A stretch of DNA of 64,000 nucleotides from Podarcis cretensis (Eukaryota), in contig OX638154.1 of the NCBI GenBank assembly GCA_951804945.1, positions 64,356,001 through 64,420,000 on the forward strand, read 5' to 3'. Positions 5,501 to 61,691 of the stretch are shown piece after piece. Position 1 is the stretch's first letter. Each line of letters opens with the position of its first letter. The position numbers and the translations under genes are program-made. The notes under the pieces were generated by a model, which saw only the letters and a program-made list of their open reading frames with translations, was not told the DNA's origin and ran no database searches.

Positions 5501-8500
5501 TCAGGGGTGTGTGGCTATCTGTAGCAGCCTTGTTCTGTTATAGAAATACTGAATGGAACCATACTGGCACTGCTACAGATTCCACATAATACCTGTTCCA
5601 TATTTGTAAAAAAATCCATTGTTTTGTGTGGCAGCACCTCCTCTTTGGAACTCCCTGCCTATTGCAATCAAGCAGATGCCTTCACTGTACTCTTTTCAGT
5701 GCCTGCTAAAAACATTCCTGTTTAGACAAACCTCCCAGATGCTTAGAAAGCTGAGGTAATTTTAATCTGTTTTAGTATTTAAACTTGTGTGTGTTTTAAA
5801 GTAGGGTTGTGGATTTTCTTGTTTATCTTTTTGTAAACCACTTTGAGGTGCCTTTAAAAAAATAAAATCAAGCAATCTCTAAATTTTATTAAATAAATCA
5901 AATATTGCTTAGGAATTCTTTCATGTTTTATTTAAGTCTCAGTAGTGCCACTCTTGAAACTGCCCTACACAGAAACTGTCCTCCTTGGAGAAATTGATAA
6001 TTTTTGGGTTACTTCATTTTGAATAAAGCAGTCTGCCAACTCTCATGATTGTTCAGAAAATTTTCAAACCAATTTCTTCATAGAACAAGGAAGCAACCAT
6101 GCTAACTGAATTGAGCTATTGCCAAGATGAACTTCCCTGGTTGATTTTCTTTTTCTTTTGTTTTTGAGGTTCTGACCAAAATTTTTTCACACTTGCTATT
6201 CCAGAATAAGAATACATCCATATACTTCCTGCAATGTATTCCTTTGATGTGATAAGACGCCTATTTAACAAAACTGTGCAAAAAATAGCTTGGTCTTACA
6301 GCTTACTATTGGCTTCAAAAGAGAGAATTTGATGGAACATTATTTGTTTAATTGGCATGTGTTAACATCAGATATCTCATAGGCCGATAATATGCCTAGA
6401 ATATCCATTAGAATATGTTTCTGAGGATTGACTACAGAATGGAAATCTTGGCAAGAATCAGCTAGTGACGTGTTTGGCTAGGAACCAATTCTCTTTCACC
6501 AGACTTCTGCCTACAGTGCTAACAATAATTTTGTTGTCCTTAATAACTCCCTTCCTTGAACTTTGGTGTTACTGTCTCTTCCTGTAGCATAGAAGTATTC
6601 TTAGTGGAGATATTATTACAAAGCGTGATTTGAAAGGAGAAGTTTTTGCAAGAATTTGCCTAGAAAAACTGTTTTCTTTGACAATATATGCATTTTGCAG
6701 AAACATTGTGTGAGTGAAGGATGGATGGATGATGGTGGCAGAGATATGAGAATTAGTGACTGACAGTAAATTTGCCATATCTTCCCTGTTGCTATGGCAA
6801 ATACTGTTGACAGCTGTTCTGATACCTTTTGCACATTCAGACATTGTTTCCCACCTGCCTCCTACTTTTAGAAGTTTTATCTCCTTCCCCCTGTCCCCAC
6901 CAATTGTTTCTTTATATCTTCTGGAATATTAAAGCCTGCTTGGAAACAGGATTTCAGTCCAAAGGCGGTGATCAAGTGTGTGAGACTATGTATGAGTGCA
7001 TTCAGAAGTTCTAGAACAGTAAATAAATGACTTGTCAAGCTCTCTGGATTTGTTTGGCACATCGTTGCAATTCCAAAATGTATGATCACTTTTTGTTTGT
7101 TTGTCTTGATTCAAAAACCTGAAATTCTCAGGCAGTGCATTTGTAGCAGCTAATCAAATATTCTATTTGCCTATATCTGGTATATGTGTGTGAATGAATC
7201 TGCACTGGGGTACAAACCTCCAAAATGAAGAATGTGAATCCAAGTTAATGTATATTTTATTTTAGCAGTGTTAATGCCTAATTCTGTTTTCTTTCTTTTC
7301 AACAAAGGCAAGCTGCCATTTATTGTACATGTCTAAAAGTATAATCCTATAGTCCTAAACTGTAGTTTTTGCTTTTAATTGTAGGGTTCAATTAAAAGGA
7401 ATTTATCTAGTAAGTATATCTATTTACTGATTTTTTTCTGGAACACAATATATCTCAGGAAGTTGGATATATTTAGAATCATCAAGATTACATAATTTTA
7501 CATCTTAATTTTCAAACTCTAGAATCATCGGAACAACTAATTTTTAAGAGACTAAAGTCTATATATTGTTAATAGGATAGTCCTCAAAACGCTATGAGGA
7601 CATTATTCCATGCACTAGTATTAAATTATGCATGAATCCATAATGTAAAATTAACAGACTCTGACAGTCTCAAAATGAGATGACGCATTTTAAATGAAAA
7701 GGCATATGGAGTATTTGCAATTGGCTGAATGCACAAACCAGTTCAACAGGGCCTAAAATTACAAGATGTTCGTAAACTGGAACGATGAAGGGTATGGCTG
7801 AAATGGGATTTTCTAAAGCTTTTCCATAAAATTGGGCCACATGAAAATAGGTTAATGGCAAGTCGTGGAGTCAGTTTATTATCTCACAACAAATGCATTA
7901 TATGTTTTTAAGGTAGTAAATGAATAATATTTTTAGCAAGTTATATTCTGTTAAGAGACACCCATCATGAGTAATGTGAGGGGAGCAATTTGAAGCTGGA
8001 AGAGCATGCAGGGTCACGTTGACATGAATTATGAAAACTGGTTCAAATTATTCTGGAAAGGGACAACATAGTTAAGCTTGGACCTAGCACTATCTAAGCA
8101 CTAAAACTAGTAAGAAATGGACTTGCGGAAGGAACGCTGTGGTGGCGCTGACATTATCAAATAGTTATGTGAACAAGTTTTCTAGAAGACACTATGATAA
8201 AATTACCTTAAAATGGTGTCTTATGTGCTAGGTGAAGAGATAGCAAGGCCCAGGCGTTCAACACCTACTCCAGAGCTTCTAAGGTTAGTATAAATGTTAA
8301 ATTATATTTTTAAAAAACCTCATTCAAGTCATGGATGGTGTGGAATCCTTGTACCCAAAAGATGTACGTGCTCTTGTTCTGGCTTACCAAGTCCTATCTG
8401 TCAAGCCTGTGCACACCTCATTATAGGAAAAGGCAGACCCTTATCCTTCTGTATGGAATGTAGCCTACTGAAGAAAGATAAGTCACATAATTGCTCCACC

Positions 8501-17060: not shown

Positions 17061-20000
17061 CTGCTGATTTTGTTACAAGGTGTTGTAAAGGTTTCATTTT
17101 TTAACATCTAGATGTAAAACTCTAATGTTGTTCCTGTAGTAAGAGGTCCTCTTTTAGTTGATCACCGAGGTGACAGATGGGTTCTTACAAAACTTCCATC
17201 TGTTTCACTGAAGTTTCATAGGACACAAATCTGGTAGCTCTATGACACTGGATCACACATGCTGCCATAATTTGTTTTTCAGTAATCTGGGATTAATATT
17301 TGTGTAGTGCATGTTTAGCATAATTGGGGTTTTATGTTGTTTTAATGAGGAGGGGAAATAGTGGTTTGAGTGCACAGAACTTGGTACTTGGCACTGGAGT
17401 TTTACATGCACCAGTAAATACAAAATATTTTAAATCGCCAAGGCTTTTCCAAGAATTTCCCTTAAGCAAGGAAGCGTTTAGGGCATGCTTAGCAAATGCA
17501 GCATCATTACATAATCATCTAGCCTTATATTTTTAAAGCTCCATCAATCATCTTCTGATAGCTGTGTGTTTTGTGTGCGTCTTCCATTGACTGCATGAAG
17601 CATGTAATGCAGTCAGTGCTTACGATCAACACTGTAATGCTGATATGATAAAACCAACCCATACACAACTTGGATGTTAAATATCTTGTTTCACTTTTAA
17701 AGGACTGACTGACTTAGGAATTGGTAGGTCTGTTGAATGTGGAATATATTCCCCTTCCTTTTTCTATTTGGAATATGGCTTTGCCTTTTACAGTTCACAA
17801 ATACCTGCCATTTTAACCTTGTACAAAATGTCACACACCAGAATGGCCCAATAAAGAAGGGGTGTTAATGGGGAGGGGGTTTGCTACCTTTAGCAGCATG
17901 AGAGCCACTGCAGCATAGCTCCTTCCTGTGTCACTCAGTAACATCTGTCATATGTGCACAGTATGTACAAGGAGCCCGTGCTGTGAGTCCTTCCCATGCT
18001 ACTATTATTCCAACTTCCAGGAAGAATAATGCTAGAATGGGAAGAAGACACAGCAGGAATTCCTCCTGTGACAGCAGACTTTTGATGTTTCCAAGCAGGT
18101 GCAAAGGAGCAGCGCTGTTGTAGCTTAGATGCCACTGAAGGTAACCTGGGCTCTTATTCAGTCGTTTTCTATTGTTATCTCCTACTCTTAAGTTTAGAAA
18201 ACATTTATCCTATTTTGGCATAGTAAATTATATAAGTTGCTATGGAATTGCTGAACTGTGTTTTGATACGTATCAATAACTATTAAACTGCCATTTAAAT
18301 AACCTTCCCTTTTGTAGTTTAACCTCCTTTTTTGTTCAGTAGTCATCAATGATGATATGAAAAAACCATTATACACTTTGGAAGAGAGATTATTTTTCAA
18401 TTTCTTAAATATCTGCATTTTATTCCAAGTCGTCGTAACATCAGTCTTTTTACTATTCTAGTGTTCTTAGCTATTCTTTTATTTGCTAGCATCTTACAGT
18501 TACAATCACATGAAAATAATTGTGCAAGGCTTGTCTCTTTGTACACCATTGTTCCCTAAGAATAAATGGGTATTCCATTGTTACATCATTGCGTTCTGTT
18601 GCAGCACCACTTACGTTTGCATAACAAGAACACATTATGCTTTTATTGCAAGAGCATAATAAGGAATGGGTAAGTTTCAGGAATACCCCAAAAAAACTTC
18701 AATCTTTTGGTATTTTAGACATCACTTTTTCATCTAAAGTGGGTTCACTTCACCAAGTGCTGCTTCCTCATGTAAGTTAAAGAAGTTTATGTAGGAGCAG
18801 TGTGTTAACTGTAGTCACAATATCGTCATTGCCAAGAGCATGTGAAACTTCCATTGGCATAATAGCAGGAAAATAAGCTTTTCTGTTTTATTGTGACTTC
18901 ACAACTTTCTGATCTTATCCAATTCCCATCTACACATATGAATTGTCTTGTTATGCAACAGCTGCCAGCCTAAGTCAAAAGCTGTTTGGGCAACTGTTTG
19001 CTTGATGGTCTGCTATGTGTTGGGTTTTTTGATAAAGGTGGGTAAGAACTGCAGTAAGGACAGCTCAACACCATATTTATAGTGTGTGTTTATTTTAGGT
19101 TCATCATCTCCTGCTCGACCTGCAACCCCGTTGGCATCCTGCAGCAGCCCTACTCCCCCGCCTCCTCCACCTAGACCCCCATCTCGTCCAAAATTGCCTC
19201 CAGGGAAGCCTGGAGTTGATGTGGTAGGTTTAGCTTCTTCAAAATTACTAATTAAATTGAGACCACATAACTTCAGCTCACCGTGGTACAGACAAATAGA
19301 GATGAACAAAAAATTCTTAATAAACAAATGACTTCTGCCATGTCCCTAACTAGTGTCTGATTTCCTCCATTATTTGAAACCAAGAGAATGGAATAATCTC
19401 TGTTGATGACGGTAAATAGGCAGATTATTATGGAAAGTCCACATTTGAAATTGCAGGCTAGTTCTGTTGGTTTTGTTGGTCATGCCACAAACAAGTCAGA
19501 ATTATTACACCTGTGTAGGAATATGCATTTGCTTTAGCAAGAACATCTCTAAAATGTCAAGAAAGGTCAAGAAAGCTGCCATGCCCCAGTTAAATTGAAA
19601 TTGTCTGACACTAGTGATGACATGTATCTTTTCACATTTTCTGAAACACTTGGACCTGTACATACATAAGCACACCAAAGGGATGCTTCAATTTTTACTA
19701 TTCTGACATGAAAAGCACTTCTTTGTCAGAAAAAGTGTACATATTTGTTCCTGTCATGTGACAGATGTGCATATACTTTCCACTATGTATAAACACAATC
19801 TTGGGAAGTCACAGCCAACTATGAATTCCAAGTACACATTCACAAAGTGAAAGAAACTCATTTACCATTACCATCCATGACCATCCACAGGCTCTTTTCA
19901 TATCTGTTCCTATGTAGCCATCCTTGCTATATAAGAAAGAGTGTAGTGTTTGGAACAACTCTGTATGAATAATCCATCATTGTGGATTCCATTAGTGAAA

Positions 20001-23000
20001 CAACCCAGTGATTTTATTGTGGACCATTGTTTAATTTTGCACCTGTGAACTGTTTCTTGTGCACCATAGTTTTTGCAGTTTCAGATGCATTCCCCAAACG
20101 TTACATTCTGAAGCATGTTTCTCATCTGCACTACAAATATAGATCATGTGCATTAGAGAACTCAGTAAAACTTTTGGCTACACAATTCGGCTAGTAAAAA
20201 ATAAATAGCAGCTGAGAAATCAATGGATCTGTAAATCCACTCAGTGTGAATGGATTAATTCTGGGTGTTCCAGGGGCCTTAGAAGATAGCAGTTGTGCAG
20301 TTGTGAGTATTCTTGCTTGAGTTCATGTTCAGAAATGCACTGTGTGTATCTTTAATCTTGTTTGTGTTTGTCTACAGTCCAGACCTTTTAGCCCTCCGGT
20401 TCACTCTTCCAGCCCTCCTCCGATAGCACCTTTAGCACGTGCTGAAAGCACCTCTTCCATATCGTCCACCAATTCCTTGAGTGCAGCTACTACTCCAACA
20501 ATTGGTAACGAAAAGCTTTTCTTTGTTTGAAGAATAGTTTCCATGAGTGGAATGGCTTGAATATTTTAATTTCTGAAACCCTTTATTTGGTTTATATTTT
20601 CCTTTGTTTTCGTTGTCATGGTCATGTTATGTTAAAGCACTTTTTAATGTAAATGAGAATTGCACTCTTGATTAACTGTAGACTGCTGCAACTGCAATGT
20701 ATATTTGTGTATAAAATAGCAGGGACCTGAAGGGATGCATAGGCTCCCTTTATTCCCTAAACTGTGCCTTCCCCCAATAATTTCCTAAATTCCGCTAAGA
20801 TCACGAAGCAGTTTTCATTGGGTATAGGAGACTTTCCAAGGGGAGATCAGGAAAGTGGAAAGAATAGAGCTCATCTGCTGGCAGGTTTTCTATGCTGAAA
20901 AGTTATTCTGCCTACAAACCAAACTGCTTTTTGAATTGGAGGAGGGAAACTCTAAACAGTAGTTTAGGATTCAATGCAGCATTTCCTGGAAGTCTCTTAG
21001 AAGCCAGTGGAGATGTGGAACAGTCATGTTTCCCTTTGAATTCTGACCACTATAGATACAAAATGTTTTACAGTACTGTCTCGCAATTTGGCAATAATAT
21101 AAATCATTGTTAGATTAGTTAGCTGTAGCAAAACTAGATAAATGCAATAAAAATGAATAAAGTTTAACACAAAGTTTATCTTAGTAAGGAGAAATAGGAA
21201 AGGATAGCAGGAGCAGAAAGTATACTCTAGAACCAGATATTATTAAAAAGTAATGTTACAAACCAATTGTATTTGCTTCTTGGATTGCAGAAACGGTACA
21301 CATGAAAAATTTCAAAAAGTTCTAAACTTTTTCAAATCCAGTTTCATAGAAATTTGAAAATATGGAAAGTTGTACTGAAAACATGTTTTTTTCTTCTTAA
21401 GCTGAGGTTAGATTACACTTGTCAAAAGTGATAAATGTTCTGTGGCTGGCAATGCCTGGATGGTGATGCTTTTCATTTTTTGCTTCATTCTCTGGTCTTC
21501 CTTTCTGCTCCCTGCTCCACTTCCTTCTCAGACAAACATATATTTGAATTCTCTTTGTCATTCTTTATTTCATTTACAATACTCTTCATCTTCTTTACAC
21601 CTTAAAACCACCTTCTTCTCTCTGCTATAGTTCTTTTGTGCTGCAGACTCCTGGTTTTCCTTTCTGACCTGCGTCTCTTTTCATCAACGCTTCTGCTCTT
21701 CTACAGACCATCTCTGTCACCTTCAGTTCTCATTGTATGCCAGGTTGTTTTCTTTTATTGGTTTTCCCTTCTTTTACATCCCTTTGGACCCGTTCTGCTA
21801 TTAGTCTAAACTTTCTTTCTGTAGTGTTCCTGCTGTGTGCCTCTTAACCTCAATTTTTTTATCAAGCATTTTCTAATCTGTGTAGACGAGAACGGGCACT
21901 TGAGCTGCTGTTCAAATTGTCTTTCTGACTATTCTGAATGAACTCAGAATGGCAACAAATTGGATATTCCAAGAAAGGGGAAAAAATCAAAAATCTGAAT
22001 GAGCTGAAATGGATATGTTTTGTCTTCATTTGAGTAATAGCATACTACTGACTTCCCATACTAGTGGTGTTTAGTCTTCACTCAGTCATAGTAATTCATA
22101 GATACTTGTTTTGCTTATTAGAAAATGAAGATGCTGTCAACTGGGGCATATATTCAAGCCTCCAGTGATAATTTGTTAAATGCTGAACCTGGTTTGAAGT
22201 GCTTTCAGCTTTAGTTTGTCTTTTTGAAAAACCGTTCACTCTTGTTTTCTTTCTGCCTATTGTGTGTGAAATGGAAGTGTGTGGGGGAGAGTGCTTAATG
22301 CAATTTTCAGACTTCATGTTTCCCTTTTCGTACCTACTGGTATGTCCTTTGTTTCTGCTTGCTGTTGGTCAGTGCAATGACCAGGGTGATATAAATGCAC
22401 ATCAGTCAAAGTATTGAATAGCATTTCAAATACCTAACTAACAATATCGTATTATCAACTAAGAGGCTGTGTCATCAGTGGCTCAACTCCTTGTATGTGA
22501 TGTATTATGTTCCATGGGCTGGTGTAAATTGTCTGAAACTGATGTCGATCAGTAGTTTTTATGACACACTGTTGTGTGTTCTTATCAGTAACTGTGTTTC
22601 AGAACATAAGGTTCCAATGGAATCAAGCCCAACTGATTTGTGAAAAGGGCTACTTTTAAGTTGAAACGTTAGCCTAGGTTTTGTGCAGGTAAAACAGGTG
22701 ATGGGGAGGAAAACACAATTTTCTGTTGAAATAATAATTTCCCCCCTATATAAGCATGAACATGATGACTCTGTCACTATGGACATTTTCATTAATGAAA
22801 GTAAAGTTCCTCTAGATAAATTTTGTTGCTTTTAAAAGAAATAACCAATGATCCATAGAGACCATTGCTGGTTTCTGTTTGATTTTAGGATAACAATTGT
22901 GAAAGTCAAGGTGAATTAGAGTCAGGATTATTCTGTTGTTATTCAACATGATTCCACAAATCTAGATAGCCTTCAGATTGATATTCATAGATGTGGTAAC

Positions 23001-38000: not shown

Positions 38001-41000
38001 ATTGCTTCTTCATAAGCATCTAAAAGTGTGCTGGTTACTGCATCTTTGAAAAGTAAGGGTCCATTCACACAACTGTACATCCAGCTAGGGATGTAGATCA
38101 AATGTTTCAGGACTGGCTGGGACTCATAGTGAAATTGCCATCTCATTGATTCAGTTTACATCCTGCACACACTTCATCTATATTTTCTGGGATGCTATCA
38201 ATTCACAATTGAAGGCCTAGGGACTGAAATATAAACGAAGTCCATAATTAAGCCAGCTGCTTCATCAGTTGTCCAGCTCAACCTATTCTGTCTACATTCC
38301 TAACAAACTAAAGGAGGAATGGAGGACCTGTGGCCCTCAGATCTTGCTGGACTAAAACTTTGATCATCCCTGACCTTTGGCCATGCTGGCTTATTAGAAG
38401 TGGAGTCCAGCAGTATCTGGAGTGCCATTGGTTCCCCGTGCCTGACTATATGAAATCACCCTTAGACTGCATGTGAAAGCTACATAGAATCATGCAGGAC
38501 ACTCTTCTGGGTACCATACCACTTCAGGGTGCTAGTGGAGAATCACATAATTGGATACTTCCCCACATTTATTTTTTTAAAACACAACTGATCACTGCAC
38601 ATGGAAATCTGTTATAGCAAGAAGGAAGCTAGGTTAGAACCATTTCCCCATTAGGCCTGCTTTCCACAGGCAAGGAGGTTTTGATCTGGGAGCAGACTCT
38701 GAATTGGTGCTGTTTAAGGATGATAGCTTAACTACTTGGAATTATATATCTATATCTATTTGAATCTATATATCTATATCCATCCGTCCATTATTACTTG
38801 CATTTTGAACCTTCATAGCGAGCTATTATCTGCTAGAGCACCTAAGAATTCATGAGGATATTGGTCCATGTCAGTAGTGTCATTAGGTACAGTATTGCAT
38901 AGATACATGTGGGACTATTATAACTGTAGACTCTATTGTTCAGCCTCATTTTGAGAGGCTGGGCTGAATTTCCAACAGACCCATCAAAATTTACCTCCTT
39001 GTGATGTATTCTTTTATCTTTTCCTCTTTGAAAACCAGGAAACTGTTCCCTTTGGACTTTGGGCATGAAAATAAATAGTTGCAAAACAATAGCTCCAAGC
39101 CTATATAACCCTCTTGGGACCAATATTCCCTAAAATTAAATCGTTCTTTGTTCTTTCACTGCTGAAAATATGAACCTTGTGACTCAGAGATTTCTCAGAG
39201 GATGAATGGAAGTGCAAGAAGGGTTGCAAGCAATCTAATAGTGCATAAAAATGTAATAATAAAATGAGGGAAAGTAATTAATAGAATTGGCTTTGTGGTG
39301 GGAATGAGCCAAAATATAGCGCTCTTTCCCCATGGAAAGCCTTCTCCTGCATCCATGTTGATGTTCTTTTAGGGAAACATGTCTCTCTCTGTGTGTACTT
39401 AACCTCAGTGGATTACAGTCTACTCTACCTCTTTCCAAGGCTGGGACAAGATTAAGATTCAGTTATGTTATGTTGTGGTTCAGGTCACTTTGTTAAAGTG
39501 ACAGTTGCAGCATCAGTTTAAGCAAAATGATCAGCAAAGATATGCACAGTTCAGCAAGATCCCTCCCTCCCTTTTGCAACTTCATTGACAGGAAGTTGAG
39601 GGATAGCAGCTTTCCAACAAAGGACCTGTTTTTTTCCCTAGAGGAGTGTCACTCTTTCAGAGTGAACGTCACACTCCCTGAAATTTCACCTTTTGCTGCA
39701 AAATACAAGCCCTTAGACCTTTTCAGCTTAAGCCTGCTGTGTGGATTTCCTTATTAAGGTGAAATGAGTCCTAAAGCTTTTTTCATAGCATTCAAAGCTG
39801 TGTGCAATGAGCGTATGAAGGGGAAGAGTGTCATGCCCACTGTCCTCCCTCTTGGCTTATGTGCATTCGTCATGTGTCTGTGCACACACAAGTCAGGACC
39901 CGTAAACAGTGGGCATGAGCCTTCCCATCCTTCTGCATGGCCATTGTACATGGTCTCCCCTCTGTGCTGTGCCTCTTTTCAAGTCCCCATTAATGTTACT
40001 GGAACTTCCAGGCACAGGCAGCAACCAATTTGTGTGGGGGGGGGGTTATGTTCTCGACCCCTGCGCAGGTTGGCAGAGCCCAAGCAAGCATGTCCTGCCC
40101 CACTCCTTTTTGTGTCATTTTTGGGTCCGTTCTGGGTTCAGCATGATGTCTGTGTGTGTGTGGTCATGCATGTATTGGATATACCTATAAAAGGATTGCT
40201 GCCAGTAAGTCAATCTAAGGCTTGCATTCTATTTGCCTATATGCCTGCTGCAGTATATAGCTGATATTACTGCTGTAGCCCCTCTCTAAAAATTTCCTTC
40301 CTTGATCAGCTATTTAAACAGCTGCAGTAGAAAGAAATGTGATACTGTGAAGTGTTCTCCATTAGCCTGGCTAGGACACATATGCATTTGGCTTCGCCCC
40401 TCCTTGTATTGCTTCCTGTAATGGTCCCTCCGCCTCATCATTATGTAACTTCATTATGTAATAATATGGAAGTCTGTAGCTGGATATGTTTAATTTCCTC
40501 TTCCCATTCCTTTCTATCCTCTCTCTTAGTTTGTAAGTCATTGTTATACCCTGTAAACCACCTTGAGTGCTTTGGCCAGAACAGTAGTAACTAGACATAA
40601 GCTAAATTGCAACCTCTTCCTTTGAAGACTACTCTAAACGGGTGTGTTTTAAATAGACTTTTATGGCGTGAAAGTGCCCTTAGGATGTTCTGCTGTTATA
40701 CATGGCCCTTTTATACACCATGGCAGGGGCAGTTTCTGCATATCACACAGTGCTGATGTTGGAGGTGGAATCACAAAGGCCAGTCATCATCTGTCCTCTA
40801 GCAGAAGAGTGCTAGAGAAGAGACCTGCAAGCCTCACACAGAAGCAACATTGGAGCCTTCCGTGTGAAGCGTAATATCTGCATGTTAAATTTCATGGTGG
40901 TTGAATCTTCATCGAACCAAGTTCTGTGTATCCGGGGGGGGGGGGGATATATTCCCCATATCTTGTCTTTGTTTCAAATCAGAAGCACTTTTGATAGTTT

Positions 41001-44000
41001 AAATATTTGACCAGAATAAGGACAATTTTCAACAATAATATGATAGAAAATATAATGTAAAACACACTAGAAAATGAACTTTCTTTTTGTAATTGTCATA
41101 TTTATCCCTAGTATATCATAAGGGTGTGTGGTTGAGAATGACTGAAGAGAACATGACTATGCAGAGGTGTTCATCTAAAGATGGATGTTCTTTTTCAAGC
41201 GTGTTGGGAAAACATTTTCCCAGGTTTTGTTAGCCACATTAAGAGATTTTAAGTTAAGCAGGCTCTCCTCAGACTAATATGCAATACTGATCATGACACC
41301 GTGTGAACTGCTGGGGGGGGGGGGAAAGGTGTCTGACTGCAACATCATGATGGTAATTGTTTTTCTTGCTGGCCTCCTAACTCCTGCCAGAGTTATTTTC
41401 CAGATATTTTGCATAAGTGGTAAACAGATAACCCACAACCTGCTGCATACTGAATTATTACAACAGTAGCACTGTATTGCAGGGTAAAAGAAAATAGTAA
41501 AGCTTGCGTATATATTACAAAGCATTTAGTGCTACTTTTTCTAGCTAAATAGACAACCAGAATTTTAAAAAATCTCTTTTGAAATGCACTCTGTATGGCA
41601 ATTCTATATGTATTCATATCCTCTGGAAAGCTAATCTTTTCCCCATGAGGTATGTTTCTGTGGGTTTTGGTGAGAAACGCAACAGAGACCAGGAAGTATA
41701 ATCTGATTTACATGGTAGATTTATTCATATTATAATTTCTACTCAGAAGGACCTTCAGGGGGTTCCCCCTCCTCATCTTTTGAAGAAGAAGGAGAAAAAA
41801 ATGTCCCGATCATTTATAGAAGTAGTTTATTTAGAAAGTTGTTTTGGTGCTACTGCAGACAAATGGGCTGAATGCCATTTTAAGCTCCTGGTTGTGAATT
41901 GGCATGATTTGTGGGAATTGGACTTGCAGGCCAAATTGGGACTTAATTTGGCGCACCAGCTAAAAGCCACTCGCCGCTGCCCTAGAAGGGGAAGCAGGGA
42001 GTTTCATTGTGATCTTTCCCCCTCAGACGATTCTTGTTATTATGTCCAGCTCAACAACAACGATATGTTACTTAAGTATTATTTCAGCATGTGGCATTGT
42101 ACTGGTTGTATGATTCACTTAAATTTACCACATTCTTTGGCACAATACATTTTACAATACTTTGAAACTTGTTGGTGTGGGGGAAACTTTTAAAAATAGT
42201 TTAATTTGCTGTTTGTTTAGACCCCGTAATCTGACATTTCTTTGGTCTTGATGGATGTCTTGAAGAAACCTCTCTCTCTTTTCATCATTAAGCTCCAGAA
42301 TAGACTTGGAACCTAGCCGGAATTAATAGACTGGTCTTTTCTTCCATATTTATATTGTCATGGTGGGAATAGATATGGAAAAAGGCGCTTCAGAGGAAGA
42401 AGCAGTGGAGGCATGTCCATTACATTGAATAGGGCACTGCCCCACGAACCTCAGCCAGCCCCTCTTACAGACTCTGTCATTGACTCCAACTCTACTTATT
42501 GTATGTCTGCCCTACCAGCCCTGAAGGGCAAAAGCCACCACCAGAGGGAAGTCTAAAATATGCTTCTTGGAGTTCATTTACTTGCTCCTCTTTATATTTC
42601 AACCTTTCCGTCTTAATGAGAGATAACTTAACCCTACCAGCCTATGTGGAGATTAGTTATGTTCCAGTGAGAAATGAAAACCGTATTTATAGGTTTTTGC
42701 ACAATTTTTCTATTCTTCATTCTGGAATACCTGTTGAAATAAAGGGAGAATTGCACTGGATTTTTACTTTCTTGAGCGACTAAATATATTGTTAATCCTC
42801 TGGAGACTTACTGTATTTTTCCATCTATAAGACACCCCCATATAGAAGATGCCCCTTATTTTTGGGGACTCAGATTTAAGAAAATGGGGGGAGATGGCCC
42901 ATGTATAAGATGCCCCCTCATTTTTGACATTATTTTTTAGGGGGGAAACCTAGCCTTGTACACAGAAAAATACAGTACTTACCAGAATGGCAAAACCATG
43001 GGGGTGTGATATCCGAAAACACATATCTACTCTGCACATGACTTAGTCAGATAACACCAATGGTATTGATCACGTCTGCTCACAGTGGGAGAATACATGC
43101 AATTATTTTTTGTTCTTTTGTCATTGCAATCGCTGTTTCTTTTGAGCCAGACCCAGATAAAGCATCACATCTTCAGCAGCTAGCTTTTGGTTTAGCATGA
43201 CTTTCTGTTGAGCATCTGCTGAGCATATTTCAGTGGAAATAGGGGTTCAATACACATAAATAAAAATAATTTTCCCTTTTGCCTAGGCTGCTGCTTTTTT
43301 CCTCTTACGTCAGTGTGAGATTTGAGAGTTAAAATGTGTGCAGGCTTCCAGAATGGCCACACTAATGCTTATTTTATCAAAATGTTTGGGATATTTTTGG
43401 AAGAGACTCTTAATTCATACAATTGTTCACTCTTATAATACCCGTTGAGCAACTTGCTATATCTTTGCCAAACATTAATTGAAGGCATAAGGCAATTGTT
43501 GCCAAATATGTTCCTCTGTGATTCCATTCTGAGTAAACAAGGCATTTCATCTACTCTTCAATTGAATACGTGAAATTCTTGGTTTTTCCCTGCAGTCATT
43601 TACTCCTCAAAAGGCCAAACTAGGTGTGATGAGGCTGCCATATGTATGTTATCCATATGTCTGCCCTGTTCACCTATAAATCATGGTTAGGAGACAATAT
43701 GTGAAAAGGAGTGCATGAGGGAGAAGAGCAAAAGTTGGCTCTCCTCCACTTTATATCTCTGTACTCCAGAGCTTTCATTTTCTTCCAGGTTGGCTTAGTT
43801 CCAGTAGTAGAACTAGACAGAGAAAACAACTTAAAGCAATGGAGTCCAGCAACATCAAGTGGAAGAGAATGTAGGTTTTCCTTTCCTTTCCTGTGTCCCT
43901 TTACTTCAGCACCCCCTTTGAGGGTTGCCATATGTCAGGAACCTCCCGAACATAACCGGAATACTGCAATCAGAAGCAGTGTCCAGGCAGAAATTGTTAA

Positions 44001-47000
44001 AATGTCCGGGAAAATCCGGACGCATGTTGATCCATGTCAGCAGTGTTGTTTTTGCCGATGTTCCTGAAAAATAACTCAAAAATGACATTTTTGTGGGGGA
44101 ATTTTGCCAAAGAAAGCTCACCAACTTTGATGTCTGGATTTTTACTTATTGAAATAGGGCAACCCAACCCCTGCCCCTCTTTATATGTGAATGGGACAGA
44201 CATTTGGGCAGCTTGCCCAACATACCTAGTTTGGCCTTACTGCTGAAAGAGCAGTTTTATACAGGGCCTCTTTGCGACTTAATGGGATTCTTACTTAACT
44301 GCCCAAAGAGGAATAGGTAAGTGAGACCCTGCATTCACCCACAACTGCCCCTGCTTTGTTGTTTTTCCCTTCCTTGAACCTCAGTAATTGTGTCCATGGG
44401 AAAGATCTATCTCTGGATAGGCAATTGAAATCAGATGGATGTCAGCTTTTGAAGAAAAGTCCAGGCACTGAAATATTGCAAGTCACCAAACCAAATGAAA
44501 TAATGAATTAGAAGGTTTCTAGTGCATTAAATAAACCCAGACAATTATCCACATTCTCAGGTAGCCATTTTAAGTGTTCGAGAAACAAGAACCAACCATG
44601 ACAATCACCAGGATAGATACTCCACCCAAATGGCTCCCCTTTTCAACAAACAAATAATTAACGTGCCTGATGAACTCTGCCTTTTCAGTGCAGGACTGTA
44701 AATATACCCTGTTTTAAATGAGGACGTGGTCTTCCTGCAAGTTAGCTATTACCCCATACAGTCAAAGGTACATCTTTTACCCCCTCCCATGGTGGGGGCG
44801 AAGTTAGTGTGAGACAATAGGCACCTCCAGACATCCTCTTTATTAAGCTCCCCCCCCCCTGGTTTTTGTGTGTAAACACCCACTGTTTATTGAACATTCA
44901 TCCTGATTTTTTGTGCAGTTTATACAACTTCCTGTCTATTATTATCATACACTTTCTAATGCATTTCCCCCTTTGCTTTTCTTACCCGAAAAGACTGCTT
45001 GTTGTTTTTATTTTTAAAAAGTGGGTTTGTTGCACAAGTGCGCTTTAATCCACCTGAATTGCACAAATCTCAATTGTAATTGAACCCCTCTGGCAAAATA
45101 GTGACAGTCTGGGAGAAAACTAACACTACACTAGCACCAGTGCTAAAAACATTTTTAAGCCGTCTTACTAACTGCACTGCATCGCCTGCGCTTCTTGTCT
45201 CTTGCATTCTGCCTTGATGGATTCACTGGTTTCAGCTGATTTTTCTTCCCAGGAGTTTCCTTTCAACAAAATTACATTGATTATTCTCTTATTCCCTGTG
45301 GGTGGATTGCTCTGGTGCTGAAGTTCGAAACTGTGCCTGGCTTGCATTAAACACACACACACATATACACACTGCTACTAACAGTGATTAAAAGCTTTGG
45401 TTTTGATTTTTGCTTAGAGAAAAACGTAAGTATTTTTTTAGACCAGAAACAAAGTTGACGTAACTTGCCAGTAGAGTGCTTGATTTATAAAATGACTGTT
45501 TTTTGCCTTCTCTTTGCATTTCTCTGCATTTCCCTTGATGGAGTTGACTAGATGCAATCGAAAAGGTTTCTGTGTGCATAAAAAGTGACTATTTTTCATT
45601 GGTTGCAGGCTCTTCTAGAGGACCCAGCCCCTTGACAATGGGTGCACAAGACACTCTGCCCGTAGCTGCAGCTTTCACTGAAACAGTTAATGCGTACTTC
45701 AAAGGAGCAGATCCTAACAAGTAGGTATCAAATTGTTTGCCCCCATCTCTTCCCCATACAATAATAGACAGTTCAGGGTTGGTCTTACACAGTTAGAGTA
45801 TGCTCACCTTTACTGCTTACTCTGCATCCTGTGTACTCCACTGCTAGTTTTTCCCCCCTGAACCCAAATTCAGAACCTGACCTTAGCCACAACCCATATT
45901 GATGCTGTAGCTTCTTGACAAATACTGTTGTTTGATGCATTTCCCGCTCTCAATTGAACTTCAGTCCAGCTGCATTCACTTAGTACTTTAAGAATGGTGT
46001 GTACGTTTGAGAAGGCAGGGAAACAAAAAAGGCTGCACTCCTTGGCTGAATCCCCCTCTCTGGTATGAACAGCACTGTGCAAATGTGGTTTCAAATGCAG
46101 CAGTGGGAAACAACCTCACTGAATTTTAAGCTGCTGGTGTGAACATCCCCTTATTTGCCTGTAGGTGGGCCGCACGTTAGGGACTGGTGATGTAAAACCA
46201 GCAACAAAGTTGGAGAAAATATTCTTTGGCAGCTGACAAATAATTCAGTAAATAAGTACAGTTGTACCTCGGGTTACATGCACTTCAGGTTACATACGCT
46301 TCAGGTTACAGACTCTGCTAACCCAGAAATAGTACCTCGGGTTAGGAACTTTGCTTCAGGATGAGAACAGAAATTGCGCGGTGGCAGCGCGGCGGCAGCA
46401 GGAGGCCCCATTAGCTAAAGTGGTGCTTCAGGTTAAGAACAGTTTCAGGTTAAGAACGGACCTCCGGAATGAATTAATTACGTAACCAGAGGTACCACTG
46501 TACTGAGTGGGGAGAGGACACAGGGATCAGTTATTTTGCCAAAAGGGGACCCTAGCATGATGCAATCAGAGTTCTGTTGAATGCTTTCATAAATTAGGGA
46601 ATGCTGATATTACTGTGTCAAGAGAAAAACCAGATGCTCCAGCTTCTCAATCTTCAGCGTGGTTGGGGTATTTAAATATCATCTGATCTTCAGTGAAGTA
46701 TGACTGTAATCTGGTATATTGGTTTGCTCTTTTTATTTCATTTCACAACTCTGTATTACTTTTCTTTTTCTCTGTTACCTGTTTTTTCGGTGCCTACACA
46801 TTTTTGTATGCAACAAAAAATCAAATAAAAAGTTTTCTTTCCTCCAAGTATAGGGAAATGTACCTGAATGAATTGTTCTCTTTCTCTTTCTGTACGTTTC
46901 TTTTGATATTAAAGATGCATAGTGAAGATTACTGGAGAGATGGTGCTGTCATTTCCTGCAGGAATTACTAGACATTTTGCCAATAATCCCGCCCCTGCTG

Positions 47001-49812
47001 TTCTAACATTCCGTGTAACAAATTACAACAGGTTAGAACACGTCTTGCCAAACCCCCAACTGCTTTGCTGGTAAATATCTTTCTATTTTAACTCTTATAG
47101 ATTTATAGGAGGAAGTTGCTTTTGTAACTTTCGCACAAGAAACTTTGCATAGATCATAAATGAGATCAATAGCATTCTTAATTTATAAATATCTAAAACC
47201 TTTCAGTATACTTTTGTATGTCAAAAACATACAAAAGTACCTGTGGAGTTTATACTCTGTTGTTGAAACGGCAACTCTCACAATGTTTTCTTTTATTGTT
47301 GTATAGTGATTTTACAGATGAGCAGCATGCTCATTTGTCAAGCTGTTGTCAGAAAGCAAACACAAAATGTTCATGTTGATCACCATCAGCTCGAGCATGG
47401 GTCATTCTGAAGCAGCTATAATAGATGACTATTTCGCGTTCCAGTTTTTGGCAATGCCAAATTCGGCACTCCTAGAAGAAAATGGGACTGTTAACAGTAT
47501 AGCTAGAAACCTGCTTGCCATTCTTCAGATTTTCACTGTGAATCATCTGATCATTCAGCTATGTTTGCTAGCAGCCAGTGCTGCTGAAGACTCTGAATCA
47601 GTCTCTGTCTCTCATTCATTGCACTCAAATTTTGCCCCAGTAAGACCATTACAATTTGACATCATTTCTTAACACAGTGAACATGCTACAAATATAACAC
47701 ACATCAGAAGGACGTGTGGTATTTCATCCCTGATCACTGGACATTACAGTTGGGTTGGGGCTTGGGAGTTGTAATCCAACACCTAGCTGAGCCACAGGTT
47801 CCCCAACCCTGCTCTTCGTGTTATTACTTGTTGACAAAAGTTTTCCATTTACAAAATTAACATTTTCTCTCTTTTTTCCCTAAATGGATGCAGTGACAGT
47901 ACACAAGCTGATGCCAACGCAAAGGAATTCTGGGTAAACATGCCAAATTTGATGACGCATTTAAAGAAAGTATCTGAACAGAAACCACAAGCAACGTATT
48001 ATAATGTGGATATGCTTAAATATCAGGTAATACCTTTTACAGCATAAAATCTGGTGAAATGTTCAATGTGCATAAGGGCTAGATAAATATAGTTCATTTT
48101 TGTTAGTCATTGCTGATTTCAGTATCCCCCCCCAAAAAAAAAACCTTTTTATGAATGGACATGCTGAATTGTGCTAAAGGAAAAGTAAAAACAATGCAAA
48201 GTATATTCTAGGCCAAAAAAATCCTTTTAATCTGAAAGTTTATTACTACACTTTGCCTATGAAATCTACCCTTTCTCTTTCTTATAAGGTATCAGCCCAG
48301 GGTATTCAGTCTACTCCATTGAACCTTGCAGTGAACTGGCGGTGTGAGCCTACAAGCACCGATCTACGCATTGACTACAAATATAATCTAGAGGCAATGA
48401 CTACACCAGTAGCTTTAAACAATGTGCAGTTCCTTGTTCCCATAGACGGAGGAGTGACAAAACTTCAAGCTGTACTTCCACCTGCTATTTGGTATGAACC
48501 TAAACTGGTCTTTGATCCTTCCCAGTGCTCACTCCAGAGATGCACTGTTCTTAATGGCTGGAAGTTGTTCCATTTGGACAACCTGAAACTGTTTTTGATC
48601 AGCCCTTGTCATTATGTGATTAAAACTTTTGCACAGTCCTGTCTGAATAACTCTGTAGCATTTAGAATATTTGTATGCAAATGAGAAAGAGAGAAACTTA
48701 ATGCGACAGCTTATCCACACTTACCTTTCCTCTGCTCTTTCCAGGCATGGTCTGAGATTTAAAGCTCTGTGTCCAAGCACCCCCCCCTTTTTTTTTTGTT
48801 CCAGAACTTTCCCTGAGAAAACCCGTTCTGTAAAGCTCAATTGGAGCAAACATCAATCTGCACAAAACCCGAACAGAAGTTTGCTCCGATTCAGCTTTAA
48901 AGAGCAAGTTTTCTCAGGGAAAGCTCTGGCCAAAAATCAAACAAACACGGGTGCCCTTCAGATGCTGTTGGACTGCATCATCCCTGAGCTTTGCTTGGCC
49001 ATGGTGGCTGGGGCTGATGGGAAACTGTAGTACAACAGTGTATAATGGGCACCAAGTTGGCTGCCCCGAGGTAGTGGGGTTGCTAGCTTTACACAAGGCA
49101 AATAGTTATGGGAACTTCCTGTTGGCTCCTTACCTCTCTCGCCCTTACCTAGCCACTGTGATCCACGCGACGGTCACCTCCAGACTGGATTATTGTAACT
49201 CGCTCTACGTGGGGCTGCCCTTGAGACTGACCCAGAAACTCCAGCGGGTGCAGAATGCCGCAGCGAGACTCCTTATGGGGTCTTCGCTGCGAGATCACAT
49301 TTATCCGGTGCTATACCAGCTGCACTGGCTCCCGGTGCAGTATAGGATCAGGTTTAAGGTGCTAGTTTTAACCTTCAAAGCCCTATACGGCCTAGGACCC
49401 TCGTACCTACGGGACCGCCTCTCCTGGTATGCCCCACAGAGGAACTTACGGTCTTCAAATAAAAACATCTTGAAGGTCCCAGGCCACAGAGAGGTTAGGC
49501 TGGCCTCAACTAGAGCCAGGGCTTTTTCAGCTGTGGCTCCAACCTGGTGGAACGCTCTGTCACAAGAGACAAGGGCCCTGCAGGACTTGACATCTTTCCG
49601 CAGGGCCTGCAAGACAGAGCTGTTCCACCAGGCCTTTGGTCAGGGCGCAGCCTGACCCCCTCCTTTGGCAATCTTTACAAAACTTTAGTTTATGGTTGCC
49701 ATCAATTTGGATTTTAATTAACTTTTATAATGCTTTTATAATGTTGCACTGTTTTGGTGTTGTTAGCCGCCCTGAGCCCGGCTTCGGCTGGGGAGGGCGG
49801 GATATAAATAAA

Positions 49813-57683: not shown

Positions 57684-57783
57684 TAAAAAAATATTTAGCA
57701 GGCCACTGTAGAATAAACATTTTGAGTAACACTCAGGTGCACCAACATATCCAACAGTTGGGCAGCCAAGTTGCATCTCTGAT

Positions 57784-59180
57784 TGTTGTTGTTTAGTCGT
57801 GTCCGACTCTTCGTGACCCCATGGACCAGAGCACGCCAGGCACTCCTGTCTTCCACTGCCTCCCGCAGTTTGGTCAGACTCATGCTGCTAGCTTCGAGAA
57901 CACTGTCCAACCATCTTGTCCTCTGTCGTCCCCTTCTCCTTGTGCCCTCCATCATTCCCAACATCAGGGTCTTCTCCAGGGAGTCTTCTCTTCTCATGAG
58001 GTGGCCAAAGTACTGGAGCCTCAGCTTCACGATCTGTCCTTCCAGTGAGCACTCAGGGCTGATTTCCTTAAGAATGGAGAGGTTTGATCTTCTTGCAGTC
58101 CATGGGACTCTCAAGAGTCTCCTCCAGCACCATAATTCAAAAGCATCAATTCTTCGGCGATCAGCCTTCTTTATGGTCCAGCTCTCACTTCCATACATCA
58201 CTACTGGGAAAACCATAGCTTTAACTAAACGGACCTTTGTTGGCAAGGTGATGTCTCTGCTTTTTAGGATGCTGTCTAGGTTTGTCATTGCTTTTCTCCC
58301 AAGAAGCAGGCGTCTTTTAATTTCATGACTGCTGTCATCATCTGCAGTGATCATGGAGCCCAAGAAAGTAAAATCTCTCACTGCCTCCATTTCTTCCCCT
58401 TCTATTTGCCAGGAGGTGATGGGCCCAATGGCCATGATCAGCTTGAATATCATCACTTCCACTGGCCTTGTTATTAGCAGTGCTTTCTAAGGCCCATTTG
58501 ACTTCACTCTCCAGGATGTCTGGCTCAAGGTCAGCAACCACACTACCTGGGGTGTACGAGACATCCATATCTTTCTGGTATAATTCCTCTGTGTATTCTT
58601 GCCACCTCTTCTTGATGTCTTCTGCTTCTGTTAGGTCCTTACTACTTTTGTCCTTTATTATGGTAATATTTGTACGAAATGTTCCTTTCATGTCTCCAAT
58701 TTTCTTGAACAGATCTCTGGTTCTTCCCATTGTATTGTTTTCCTCTATTTCTTTGCATTGCTCGTTTAAGAAGGCCTTCTTGTCTCTCCTTGCTATTTTT
58801 TTGGAAATCTGCATTCCATTTCCTGTATCTTTCACTATTTTCCTCGCATTTTGCTTAGCCTTTCCCCCCGCTATTTGTAAGGCCTCGTTGGACAGCCACT
58901 TTGCTTTCTTGCATTTCCTTTTCATTGGGATGGTTTTCGTTGCTGCCTCCTGTATAATGTTACGAGCCTCCATCCATAGTTCTTCAGGCACTCTGTCCAC
59001 CAAATCTAAATCCTTAAACCTCACTTCCACTGTGTATTCATAAGGGATTTGATTTAGATTGTATCTTACCAGCCCAGTGGTTTTTCCTACTTTCTTCAGT
59101 TTAAGCTTGAATTTTGCTATAAGAAACTGATGATCTGAGCCACAGTCAGCTCCAGGTCTTGTTTTTGCTGACTGTATAGA
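57784..59180 (-). mobile_element. Bov-B (RTE clade) LINE, 5'-truncated and internally deleted
   Basis: Minus-strand ORFs with EIKRRLLLGRKAMTNLDSILKSRDITLPTKV...WRALVHGVTKSRTRL and DLDLVDRVPEELW...LEPDILESEVKWAL; (CAA)n tail; 11-bp TSD GCATCTCTGAT at 57773-57783 / 59181-59191. Confidence 0.95.
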
Positions 59181-61691
59181 GCATCTCTGATACTCATCCT
59201 CTATTTACCTTCTACTGTATGTGATAAAGAAAAATCAGACCTGAAACTGTTAAAATGGGAAAGAACCATTGTGCTTAGATGTTTGTTTGAACATATGAAA
59301 GCCACTGCAACAATGGGTTGTATTCAGTGCTGCCATTCCACGTGTGTAAGACTTCTACTTGCACAACAGAACTTCCCACCACCACAGTCCCCCCACCACC
59401 ACCACCCAGCTGCCTCTACGCCCTCAAAATCTGCTCGAGTGTTGGGGACTCCAAAGCAGATTTGGGAGGCATGCAGGGAGAGAAGAGGGAAGTCCTGTTG
59501 TGTGAGCAGAATTCCATTCACACAATGACCGCAGTCTAAATCATGACATGGACTTCTAAACTTACCTTTGGGAAGCTGCTCTTACGTGGCCCTAAGTAAG
59601 CTACTCTTGAAGCCTAGGAAGACCCTTCCTAAGTGGGACTCCCAAGCATTCTGCTGGTAACAGCAAAAATCCTAAAGAAAAGCTGATATAAACACACTGA
59701 CTCTTGCATGTACCTAACAGGGTTCTTTTGCTATGGATCAATCAGCCCTATTGTTAATCGTCAACAAGCTGCAAACAAAGAGAGCCACTCTTGACTGACC
59801 CTAGTGCAAGTATACTGATGGTGCTTTCTGAACTTCTTCTGGTTGCAAGAGTTAACATGAACAATCACTACTTTATCTTTTATAGGAGTAATTTTGAAAT
59901 GGCTGAATCATGTTGAAAGGGATCAATATTTTTAAAGAGCCTGACAAGAAAATTGAAATAATTCTTTTACTTAAAGATTTAGAGTAATTGTAGTGACAGC
60001 TCCTCTGTCCTCTAATTCTTGTTCTTCAATTTTTTACCTTTACCATAGCTAAATAGGAAAGACTCCTCTCTGTGTACAACTTTATTAGAAGTTACAGGAT
60101 ACCTCTGCATATATAGAGCACTCTGGAAAAAGTTGTACATTGTTTTTTAACTAAACAAGTAATGTTATCTCATTCATGTTTGACATCTACTTAGGTGCCG
60201 AGTCAGTTCAGTATCACTGCAGTGTAGATGTATTTGGTTTTGTTTTTTTTAAAAAAAGGCATTTTTAACAAGCTTTTCTTGTTAAATTTTTAATTTGGAA
60301 GCTTACCATGATAACCAAATCACTTCAAATGCAATATGATAATGAATACTTTTTCCCATGGGAAAATCCCAATTTTGGGTCTACACCAGAGCTGGAATTT
60401 CTTTCTTGAAAGTTTATATAAGAGGCGTTTCTAGTGATAATGGACATCTTATGCTCTTCAACGTTTTGCTCCATTAGACGTGGTTAGAAATTTACAACAT
60501 CACAAAGCAATTGACCTCTTTTGACCTTTAAGAAAGGATTACTGTTGCTGCTACTGAACTCTTTACTTTTGATTTCAAGGATTAGTGTGATGATGATGTT
60601 CAAAGGGGTTTACCCATGAGCAGGAATTTCACTATAGGCCAAGCAGTACGTGAAAGTCTAGAATCTGTCTTTTAGTGACCTTAACAATGTTTAACATTAA
60701 TAAATTGTATTTCAAATTAGTATGAATATGAAATACAGCTGTTTTAGCTGTTACCTCCGGTAAATTGGGATTATAAAACTACCACATCATTTCTCAACTA
60801 GACACTTAAGAATACCACTTATGCTAGTGTCTTAGAAGGGGAGATGGATTTTCAAAATGAAGGAATTGTAGGCACACACTTTTTTCTTCTTCATTTAACT
60901 GGCTCAATCAAACTCAAATGCTAAACTCCAATCCTGCCAAACTGTTGTACACATGTTTTCAAAGGCACTATTGACTTGCATGCAATTAAGCATGTGTATA
61001 AGCATTTGCAGGCCTTGGGTCTTAATTCTTAGCTGTGATTTCAACCCTAAAGGAATTTTGAAACCTGAATTAGATTCCCTGGTGTTTTATCAGATATCAA
61101 ACTATATCATTTTATAATAAAAAAACCTTGTGTATAAACTGTTTATAGATATTTGTGGACTTAAAATACACATGTATATTTTTAAACATTTTTGTTTAAA
61201 AGTCTGGACTTCTCAGCCTACGTGTGCAATGAAATATACTATCCTTTTAGTCTAGTTGGCCCTGTTTACTGCTTAGTCTGTTATGAAAGCTTTGCTGCTA
61301 ACCTGATGGTCTCAGAGAAAAATTGTAAACTATATAGGTTTGTTGCATCAGAAACACTGCAGCAAAGCTTTATATCTGACCACTGGTAATATGAATGTGT
61401 CGTATTGACTTGTTGAAGATAATCATAAAACCACATATTTTCAGTGTTTCTTTCCTTATAGATTAGAATACAAATGTCTATTTTTTTTGTAAATAATGAT
61501 TTTTATAAATGTCTTTCCATCATGATTTCCCCCTAATCATCCATTTCACAAAATCCTGAATATGCAATTATTTATCATACATGATATTATACAAGAAATA
61601 GGGTCCCCGTTTCAGAACAAAGTTTATTAAATTCTATACATAAGAACAAATTTAAATAAGTTGTACTTGAAATGTGATTTTCCCCCTTGAA

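Follow-up and report, generated by a model that had tools for sequence, protein, structure and literature searches.

Related splicing systems and the SGIP1 locus

The closest described systems are of different kinds. hnRNP L represses cryptic exons, unannotated exon-sized units with good splice sites that carry a CA repeat within the exon near the 5' splice site, are not conserved and are de-repressed upon loss of hnRNP L (PMC5959245). Neural microexons dependent on SRRM3/4 are 3-27 nt long, usually keep the reading frame, are conserved across vertebrates and have UGC beside the acceptor as well as an extended, accessible region between branch point and acceptor; the 12- and 25-nt exons of the neural endocytic gene SGIP1 belong themselves among those compared here (PMC7821500, PMC12871342). 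Inclusion of the PTBP1-controlled neural poison microexon of Bak1 has been demonstrated to trigger nonsense-mediated decay (NMD) and to lower the amount of protein (PMC13542418). Finally, tandem acceptors of the NAGNAG type, with two AGs within six bases, show a wobble that is mostly stochastic and does not represent a regulated switch (PMC2875228).

The locus described here precedes the first mu-homology exon of SGIP1 in the wall lizard and shares elements with all of these systems. Based on its sequence layout, it may be likened to the exons repressed by hnRNP L, from which it differs by a second branch point and acceptor inside the exon and by an 8-nt short form. It has the size, the UGC and the kind of host gene of an SRRM3/4 microexon, but its favoured form breaks the reading frame, no orthologue is listed, the distance to the branch point does not seem extended and inclusion was not seen in the RNA contigs examined. 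As with Bak1, splicing such a tiny exon into the message would cause NMD and reduce the protein; the Bak1 exon, however, is a demonstrated one and the lizard candidate a predicted one. In comparison with NAGNAG sites, the two AGs of the lizard acceptor are 2 nt apart and the distal one is preceded by a G (GAG). Each reading of the locus considered below, except for a regulated toggle between these two AGs, belongs to an already known kind of system.

The plus strand of the window, i.e. the whole stretch of 64,000 nucleotides of Podarcis cretensis DNA that was analysed, holds most of SGIP1. Exons were placed by mapping public isoforms. A large exon is 100% identical to Podarcis proteins, and the first mu-homology exon (112 nt, 45609..45720), which is also present in a spliced contig (X6), matches the start of the mu-homology construct PDB 5AWR (E 6e-14), which bears out the gene assignment and the exon anatomy given by an earlier sequence-only reading of this DNA. 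Real SGIP1 microexons in the window lie at 2581-2592, 5339-5350 and 7385-7409; the two 12-nt exons are identical to rows of a mouse table (PMC7821500), and skipping of the 25-nt exon is flagged as NMD-triggering in mouse and human (PMC13078869).

A 20-residue exon, SGIP1-alpha (described in PMC8740024), is the immediate upstream neighbour of the mu-homology exon in 156 of 328 listed isoforms and had been overlooked by the sequence-only reading. Among the legible letters of the window it was not found; judging from the protein, it should have the same phase, which would leave the candidate frames unchanged. Small lineage-specific exons do arise in this region, as the snake isoforms P0036-P0038, P0040, P0044, P0045, P0122 and P0135 have an extra 10-residue cassette in the same part of the gene. 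Mammalian SGIP1 forms without the mu-homology domain are also found (P0224, P0229 and P0337-P0344; P0231, P0232 and P0351); some of them, including human isoform 17, are read-through forms after the exon matching 20378-20504, and rat forms of this set end after the first mu-homology exon. Long open frames at 48834-49655 (plus strand) and 57695-59204 (minus strand) presumably are fragments resembling retrotransposon reverse transcriptases.

Splice signals and their rarity

On re-reading of the sequence, all motif letters and coordinates of the candidate microexon given previously proved exact. On the plus strand, a perfect branch-point motif TACTAAC (45376..45382), whose branch A is 35 nt from the acceptor, is followed by a U-rich tract (45383..45417) that includes an ATTAAA at 45387, TGC at 45411-45413 and the first acceptor TAG. 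The two acceptor AGs occupy 45416-45417 and 45418-45419, and the consensus donor GTAAGT (45426..45431), common to all candidate forms, starts an intron of 183 nt that ends at the exon at 45609. The first AG defines a candidate exon of 8 nt (45418..45425) and the second one of 6 nt (45420-45425), which requires a GAG acceptor; with their AG and GT ends, both lengths are inside the 3-27 nt range of microexons. The translations claimed for the two forms hold: the 8-nt exon would shift the frame to a TGA at 45633-45635 and the 6-nt exon would replace G by EKR. Hence, the frame is kept only by the GAG form and is broken by the YAG form. The UGC near the 3' splice site, which had been taken as a signature of neural microexons, is present as stated, but is a weak marker, as several antisense decoys have it too. 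The mean unpaired probability of the region from branch point to acceptor is 0.45, compared to 0.24-0.60 for the real microexons of SGIP1. Two other assignments of these signals were rejected: action of the branch point at a distance on the exon at 45609, since several AGs lie in between, and use of an AAG at 45392-45394 as acceptor, which scores 0.7 and is 13 nt from the branch A.

A second perfect TACTAAC, overlooked by the sequence-only reading, lies upstream on the same strand (45166..45172) and is the only one of nine sense TACTAAC motifs in 144 kb with at least 55 AG-free bases after it. It is followed by an AG-free tract rich in pyrimidines and TGC (45173..45252), with five TGC and a TGC density in the top 1% of 70-nt windows in the intron. 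Candidate acceptors end at 45235 and 45252 and score 4.5-4.7 and 8.5-8.7, respectively, compared to 6.6-6.7 for the microexon acceptor. Together with the GTAAGT donor, they predict long exon forms of 190 nt (from 45236) and 173 nt (45253..45425), both with an internal stop, that of the 173-nt form being at 45348. The frame of the 173-nt form comprises 36 residues and that of the 190-nt form 49 residues, the latter without a database match. The stop codon of the 173-nt form overlaps an ATTAAA, which is followed by a CA repeat (together 45346..45372); the repeat itself (45351-45372) is located inside the long form, 54-75 nt before the donor. Three ACTAAC motifs occur within 260 nt (P about 0.025).

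The rarity of the microexon signals depends on how the pattern is defined. In 60 dinucleotide-shuffled versions of 144 kb, a strict pattern including TGC never arose, and the antisense strand lacks it as well; when TGC is not required, the pattern occurs in 5% of the shuffles. A loose pattern yielded five sense sites, two of which are known microexons, none on the antisense strand and 5.5 per shuffle. The bare triad of branch point, YAG, short gap and GTAAGT shows no enrichment in the 1.5-Gb genome, with 76 matches compared to 256 for a reversed control whose word frequencies differ as well, and most of the genomic matches have no pyrimidine tract. Of 30 matches examined out of the 76, three show both a clean tract and an exon no longer than 15 nt; TGC is present in one of these three. 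The closest genome-wide twin among the 30 is L025 (G000:C2:48706263-48706311, minus strand), with a perfect branch point, a clean tract with TGC, an 8-nt exon and GTAAGT; L028 and L030 resemble it, but are without TGC. Six look-alike exon motifs from this search were not in the mouse microexon table, as far as available (PMC7821500). A genome search with 45150-45610 matched its own locus only, and an Rfam search of 43500-46200 gave no match.

A splice matrix derived from SGIP1 itself (18 acceptors, 18 donors) gave combined scores of 13.6 for the 8-nt and 14.0 for the 6-nt form, compared to 14.2-18.0 for the four real microexons of SGIP1, and ranked the two forms 28 and 19, respectively, among 648 sense candidates. 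Equally high scores were obtained for 14 of 614 antisense decoys, none of which has TGC and a near-perfect branch point in addition. By splice-site score alone the candidate is thus unremarkable, and it is mainly the branch point that makes the site unusual. The full combination is rare, yet the pattern was chosen post hoc and may have originated by chance.

Other short-exon candidates were noted along the gene. The intron that holds the candidate contains another 8/6-nt look-alike (44309-44316), which has a perfect donor, a weak AAG acceptor (2.3) and a poor branch point. A 3-nt in-frame candidate with a GTAAGT donor follows a long AG-free pyrimidine tract (40530-40532) and corresponds to no insertion among 328 listed isoforms. 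The top-scoring unannotated in-frame short exons by the SGIP1-trained matrix are at 1223-1237 (15 nt), not found in the 30 commonest isoform variants, and at 17703-17723 (21 nt), found in none of the variants.

Evidence on exon use

The proteins compared were 353 in number, collected as the best 120 of 849 and the best 120 of 1078 matches plus up to 15 members per cluster. None of the 328 listed vertebrate isoforms with the mu-homology exon contains the in-frame EKR insertion. The same annotation set captured the 12-nt microexons of SGIP1 in 142 of 327 listed isoforms; NMD forms, however, are left out of protein annotation, and exons of 6-8 nt may escape it. A junction variant of P0120 was considered as a candidate exon and rejected, as it reads like an artefact of the gene model.

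The exon had been put forward as one not known from mammalian SGIP1, which agrees with the mouse and human tables in the parts available. The MicroExonator mouse table (PMC7821500, file 2, 2,988 rows) lists Sgip1 in four rows, each for an exon upstream of the candidate's intron, and has no row in the intron preceding the mu-homology exon. Among the mouse and human SGIP1 rows listed from PMC13078869, there is no NMD-on-inclusion event in the candidate's interval, for which only cassettes of 60 and 66 nt are given; the listed rows from human induced neurons, whether treated with cycloheximide or not, contain no SGIP1 NMD-on-inclusion event either. Such mammalian tables are unable to show a squamate-specific exon. 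SGIP1 was absent from 12 of 13 supplementary files of PMC11188260, and the candidate exon was not found in the literature on SGIP1 microexons, splice variants and alternative splicing. In FCHO2- and FCHO1-like paralogues, the 1.5 kb upstream of the corresponding exon contain no such motif.

The RNA sources listed were 14 putative-RNA contig sets, six unclassified sets and four raw RNA runs. In contig X6 (depth 3.5, from an unspecified tissue), the exon at 20378-20504 is joined directly to 45609 and from there to 46915, so that the candidate is skipped. A second putative-RNA contig runs unspliced through 45001-45345. Three of the four contig sets examined of the 14 had no piece on the mu-homology exon. 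Contig assembly drops rare variants, and all of the comparisons in this section are insensitive to a rare 8-nt exon. The raw reads (6-12% of each of the four runs) covered the mu-homology exon at a depth of 0-0.18 and were uninformative, most of the output stemming from a short repeat at about 46220-46520. In all four runs, this repeat, which is probably a SINE, drew thousands of diverged RNA reads. When metagenomes were scanned for host DNA containing the exon, 599 pattern matches were obtained, none of which was confirmed. Use of the candidate exon in any form is therefore unsupported, given its absence from the 328 listed isoforms and its skipping in the spliced contig. As evidence these negatives are weak, since a squamate-specific or NMD-hidden exon would escape all of them.

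Readings of the locus and their significance

We regard the locus as a normally skipped, unproductive cryptic exon unit of the poison type before the mu-homology exon of SGIP1, with a probability of about one half (0.52). The single consensus donor would be served by two sets of branch point and acceptor and give rise to an exon of 173 or 190 nt or to the microexon of 8 nt. All forms whose acceptor has a pyrimidine at -3 would then end in a premature stop with six exons still downstream. Stops located more than 50-55 nt ahead of a later exon junction elicit NMD. The TGA at 45633 is 85 nt before the end of its own exon and six exons follow; given this position, any of the premature-stop forms is a likely NMD target, and the mRNA would probably be removed by decay. 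Skipping, in turn, is probably enforced by hnRNP L at the exonic CA repeat and by QKI, which competes with SF1 at ACUAAC branch sites and represses inclusion (PMC13004596), at the branch points of the unit. That the unit is mostly silent is suggested by the 328 listed isoforms, the mammalian tables, the paralogues and the skipping contig. The upstream acceptor, which outscores that of the microexon, the lack of a database match for the frame of the 190-nt form, the CA repeat inside the long form and the clustered ACTAAC motifs also speak for this reading. One putative-RNA contig crosses the long-form acceptors unspliced, however, so that the long form is as unsupported as the short one. Against a silent unit as a whole counts that the full motif is rare by chance and that its host is a neural gene known to have four real microexons.

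The next most probable reading is a neuron-regulated 8-nt poison microexon, the inclusion of which would be promoted by SRRM3/4 via UGC and the decay of which would tune the dose of SGIP1. We consider this possible, if rather doubtful. The combination of perfect branch point, UGC, YAG and consensus donor is rare by chance, the splice score of 13.6 is only slightly below that of the real microexons, the 25-nt exon of SGIP1 is already flagged for NMD upon skipping in mouse and human (PMC13078869), and an NMD form would be missing from protein databases. On the other hand, the exon is not in the available mouse or human brain tables, one spliced contig skips it, and 0.74 of neuronal and muscular microexons keep the frame (PMC7821500). 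In addition, the 35 nt between branch point and AG are near the median of 34 nt for ordinary exons, compared to 45-47 nt for neural microexons, values which were obtained by another method (PMC12871342).

The same sequence may also be read as an alternative last exon, in which splicing to 45253 would lead to the stop at 45348 and to cleavage after one of the ATTAAA motifs (45346/45387), resulting in an SGIP1 that lacks the mu-homology domain; in that case, the U/G-rich tract would act as downstream poly(A) element and GTAAGT would be incidental. The strong acceptor, the two ATTAAA, the U/G-rich tract at a fitting distance and the mammalian forms ending ahead of the mu-homology domain or shortly after its start (P0224, P0337, P0231) are consistent with it. 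However, those mammalian forms terminate elsewhere, no collected isoform ends within the candidate stretch, and ATTAAA is frequent in AT-rich introns, so we consider this reading unlikely.

Use of the distal AG, either by regulated AG choice or as a 6-nt microexon on its own, would place EKR before the mu-homology domain and appears improbable to us. Both AGs exist with the frames as claimed, AGs less than six bases apart can compete (PMC2875228), and the small SGIP1-trained matrix is compatible with the second AG: it fails to separate the two (6.2 vs 6.6; upon rescoring, depending on the pseudocount, 6.6 vs 7.5 or 6.7 vs 5.8), whereas it did separate the AGs of the control microexons. Yet the second AG has a G at -3, which is the case for none of 22 SGIP1 acceptors (13 C, 6 T, 3 A). 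The known SGIP1 microexons starting with AG|AG, three in number, all take the first AG, being listed in the available tables only at the corresponding lengths of 25, 12 and 12 nt, which also fit the proteins. The EKR insertion occurs in none of the 328 listed isoforms, and neither tandem-acceptor form is found in the lizard contigs. Moreover, short-range wobble is mostly stochastic and a longer branch-point distance favours the proximal AG (PMC2875228). The ON/OFF toggle by a 2-nt acceptor shift, as proposed by the sequence-only reading, is not supported, and a regulated choice between the two AGs is very improbable; a microexon actually used here would most likely be the unproductive one of 8 nt. 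A three-way, frame-encoded dose switch, in which EKR insertion or a poison transcript would be nested in a CA-repressed longer poison exon, is likewise very improbable.

A silent unit would be just another cryptic exon of little importance. For splicing specialists, regulated toggling between acceptors 2 nt apart would come as a surprise, but the evidence speaks against it. Should the 8-nt form prove to be a neural poison microexon under regulation, it would be a second microexon-NMD control on SGIP1, an endocytic adaptor of which the splice forms differ in activity (PMC8740024), and would mean that reptile poison microexons exist beyond the mammal-based catalogues.
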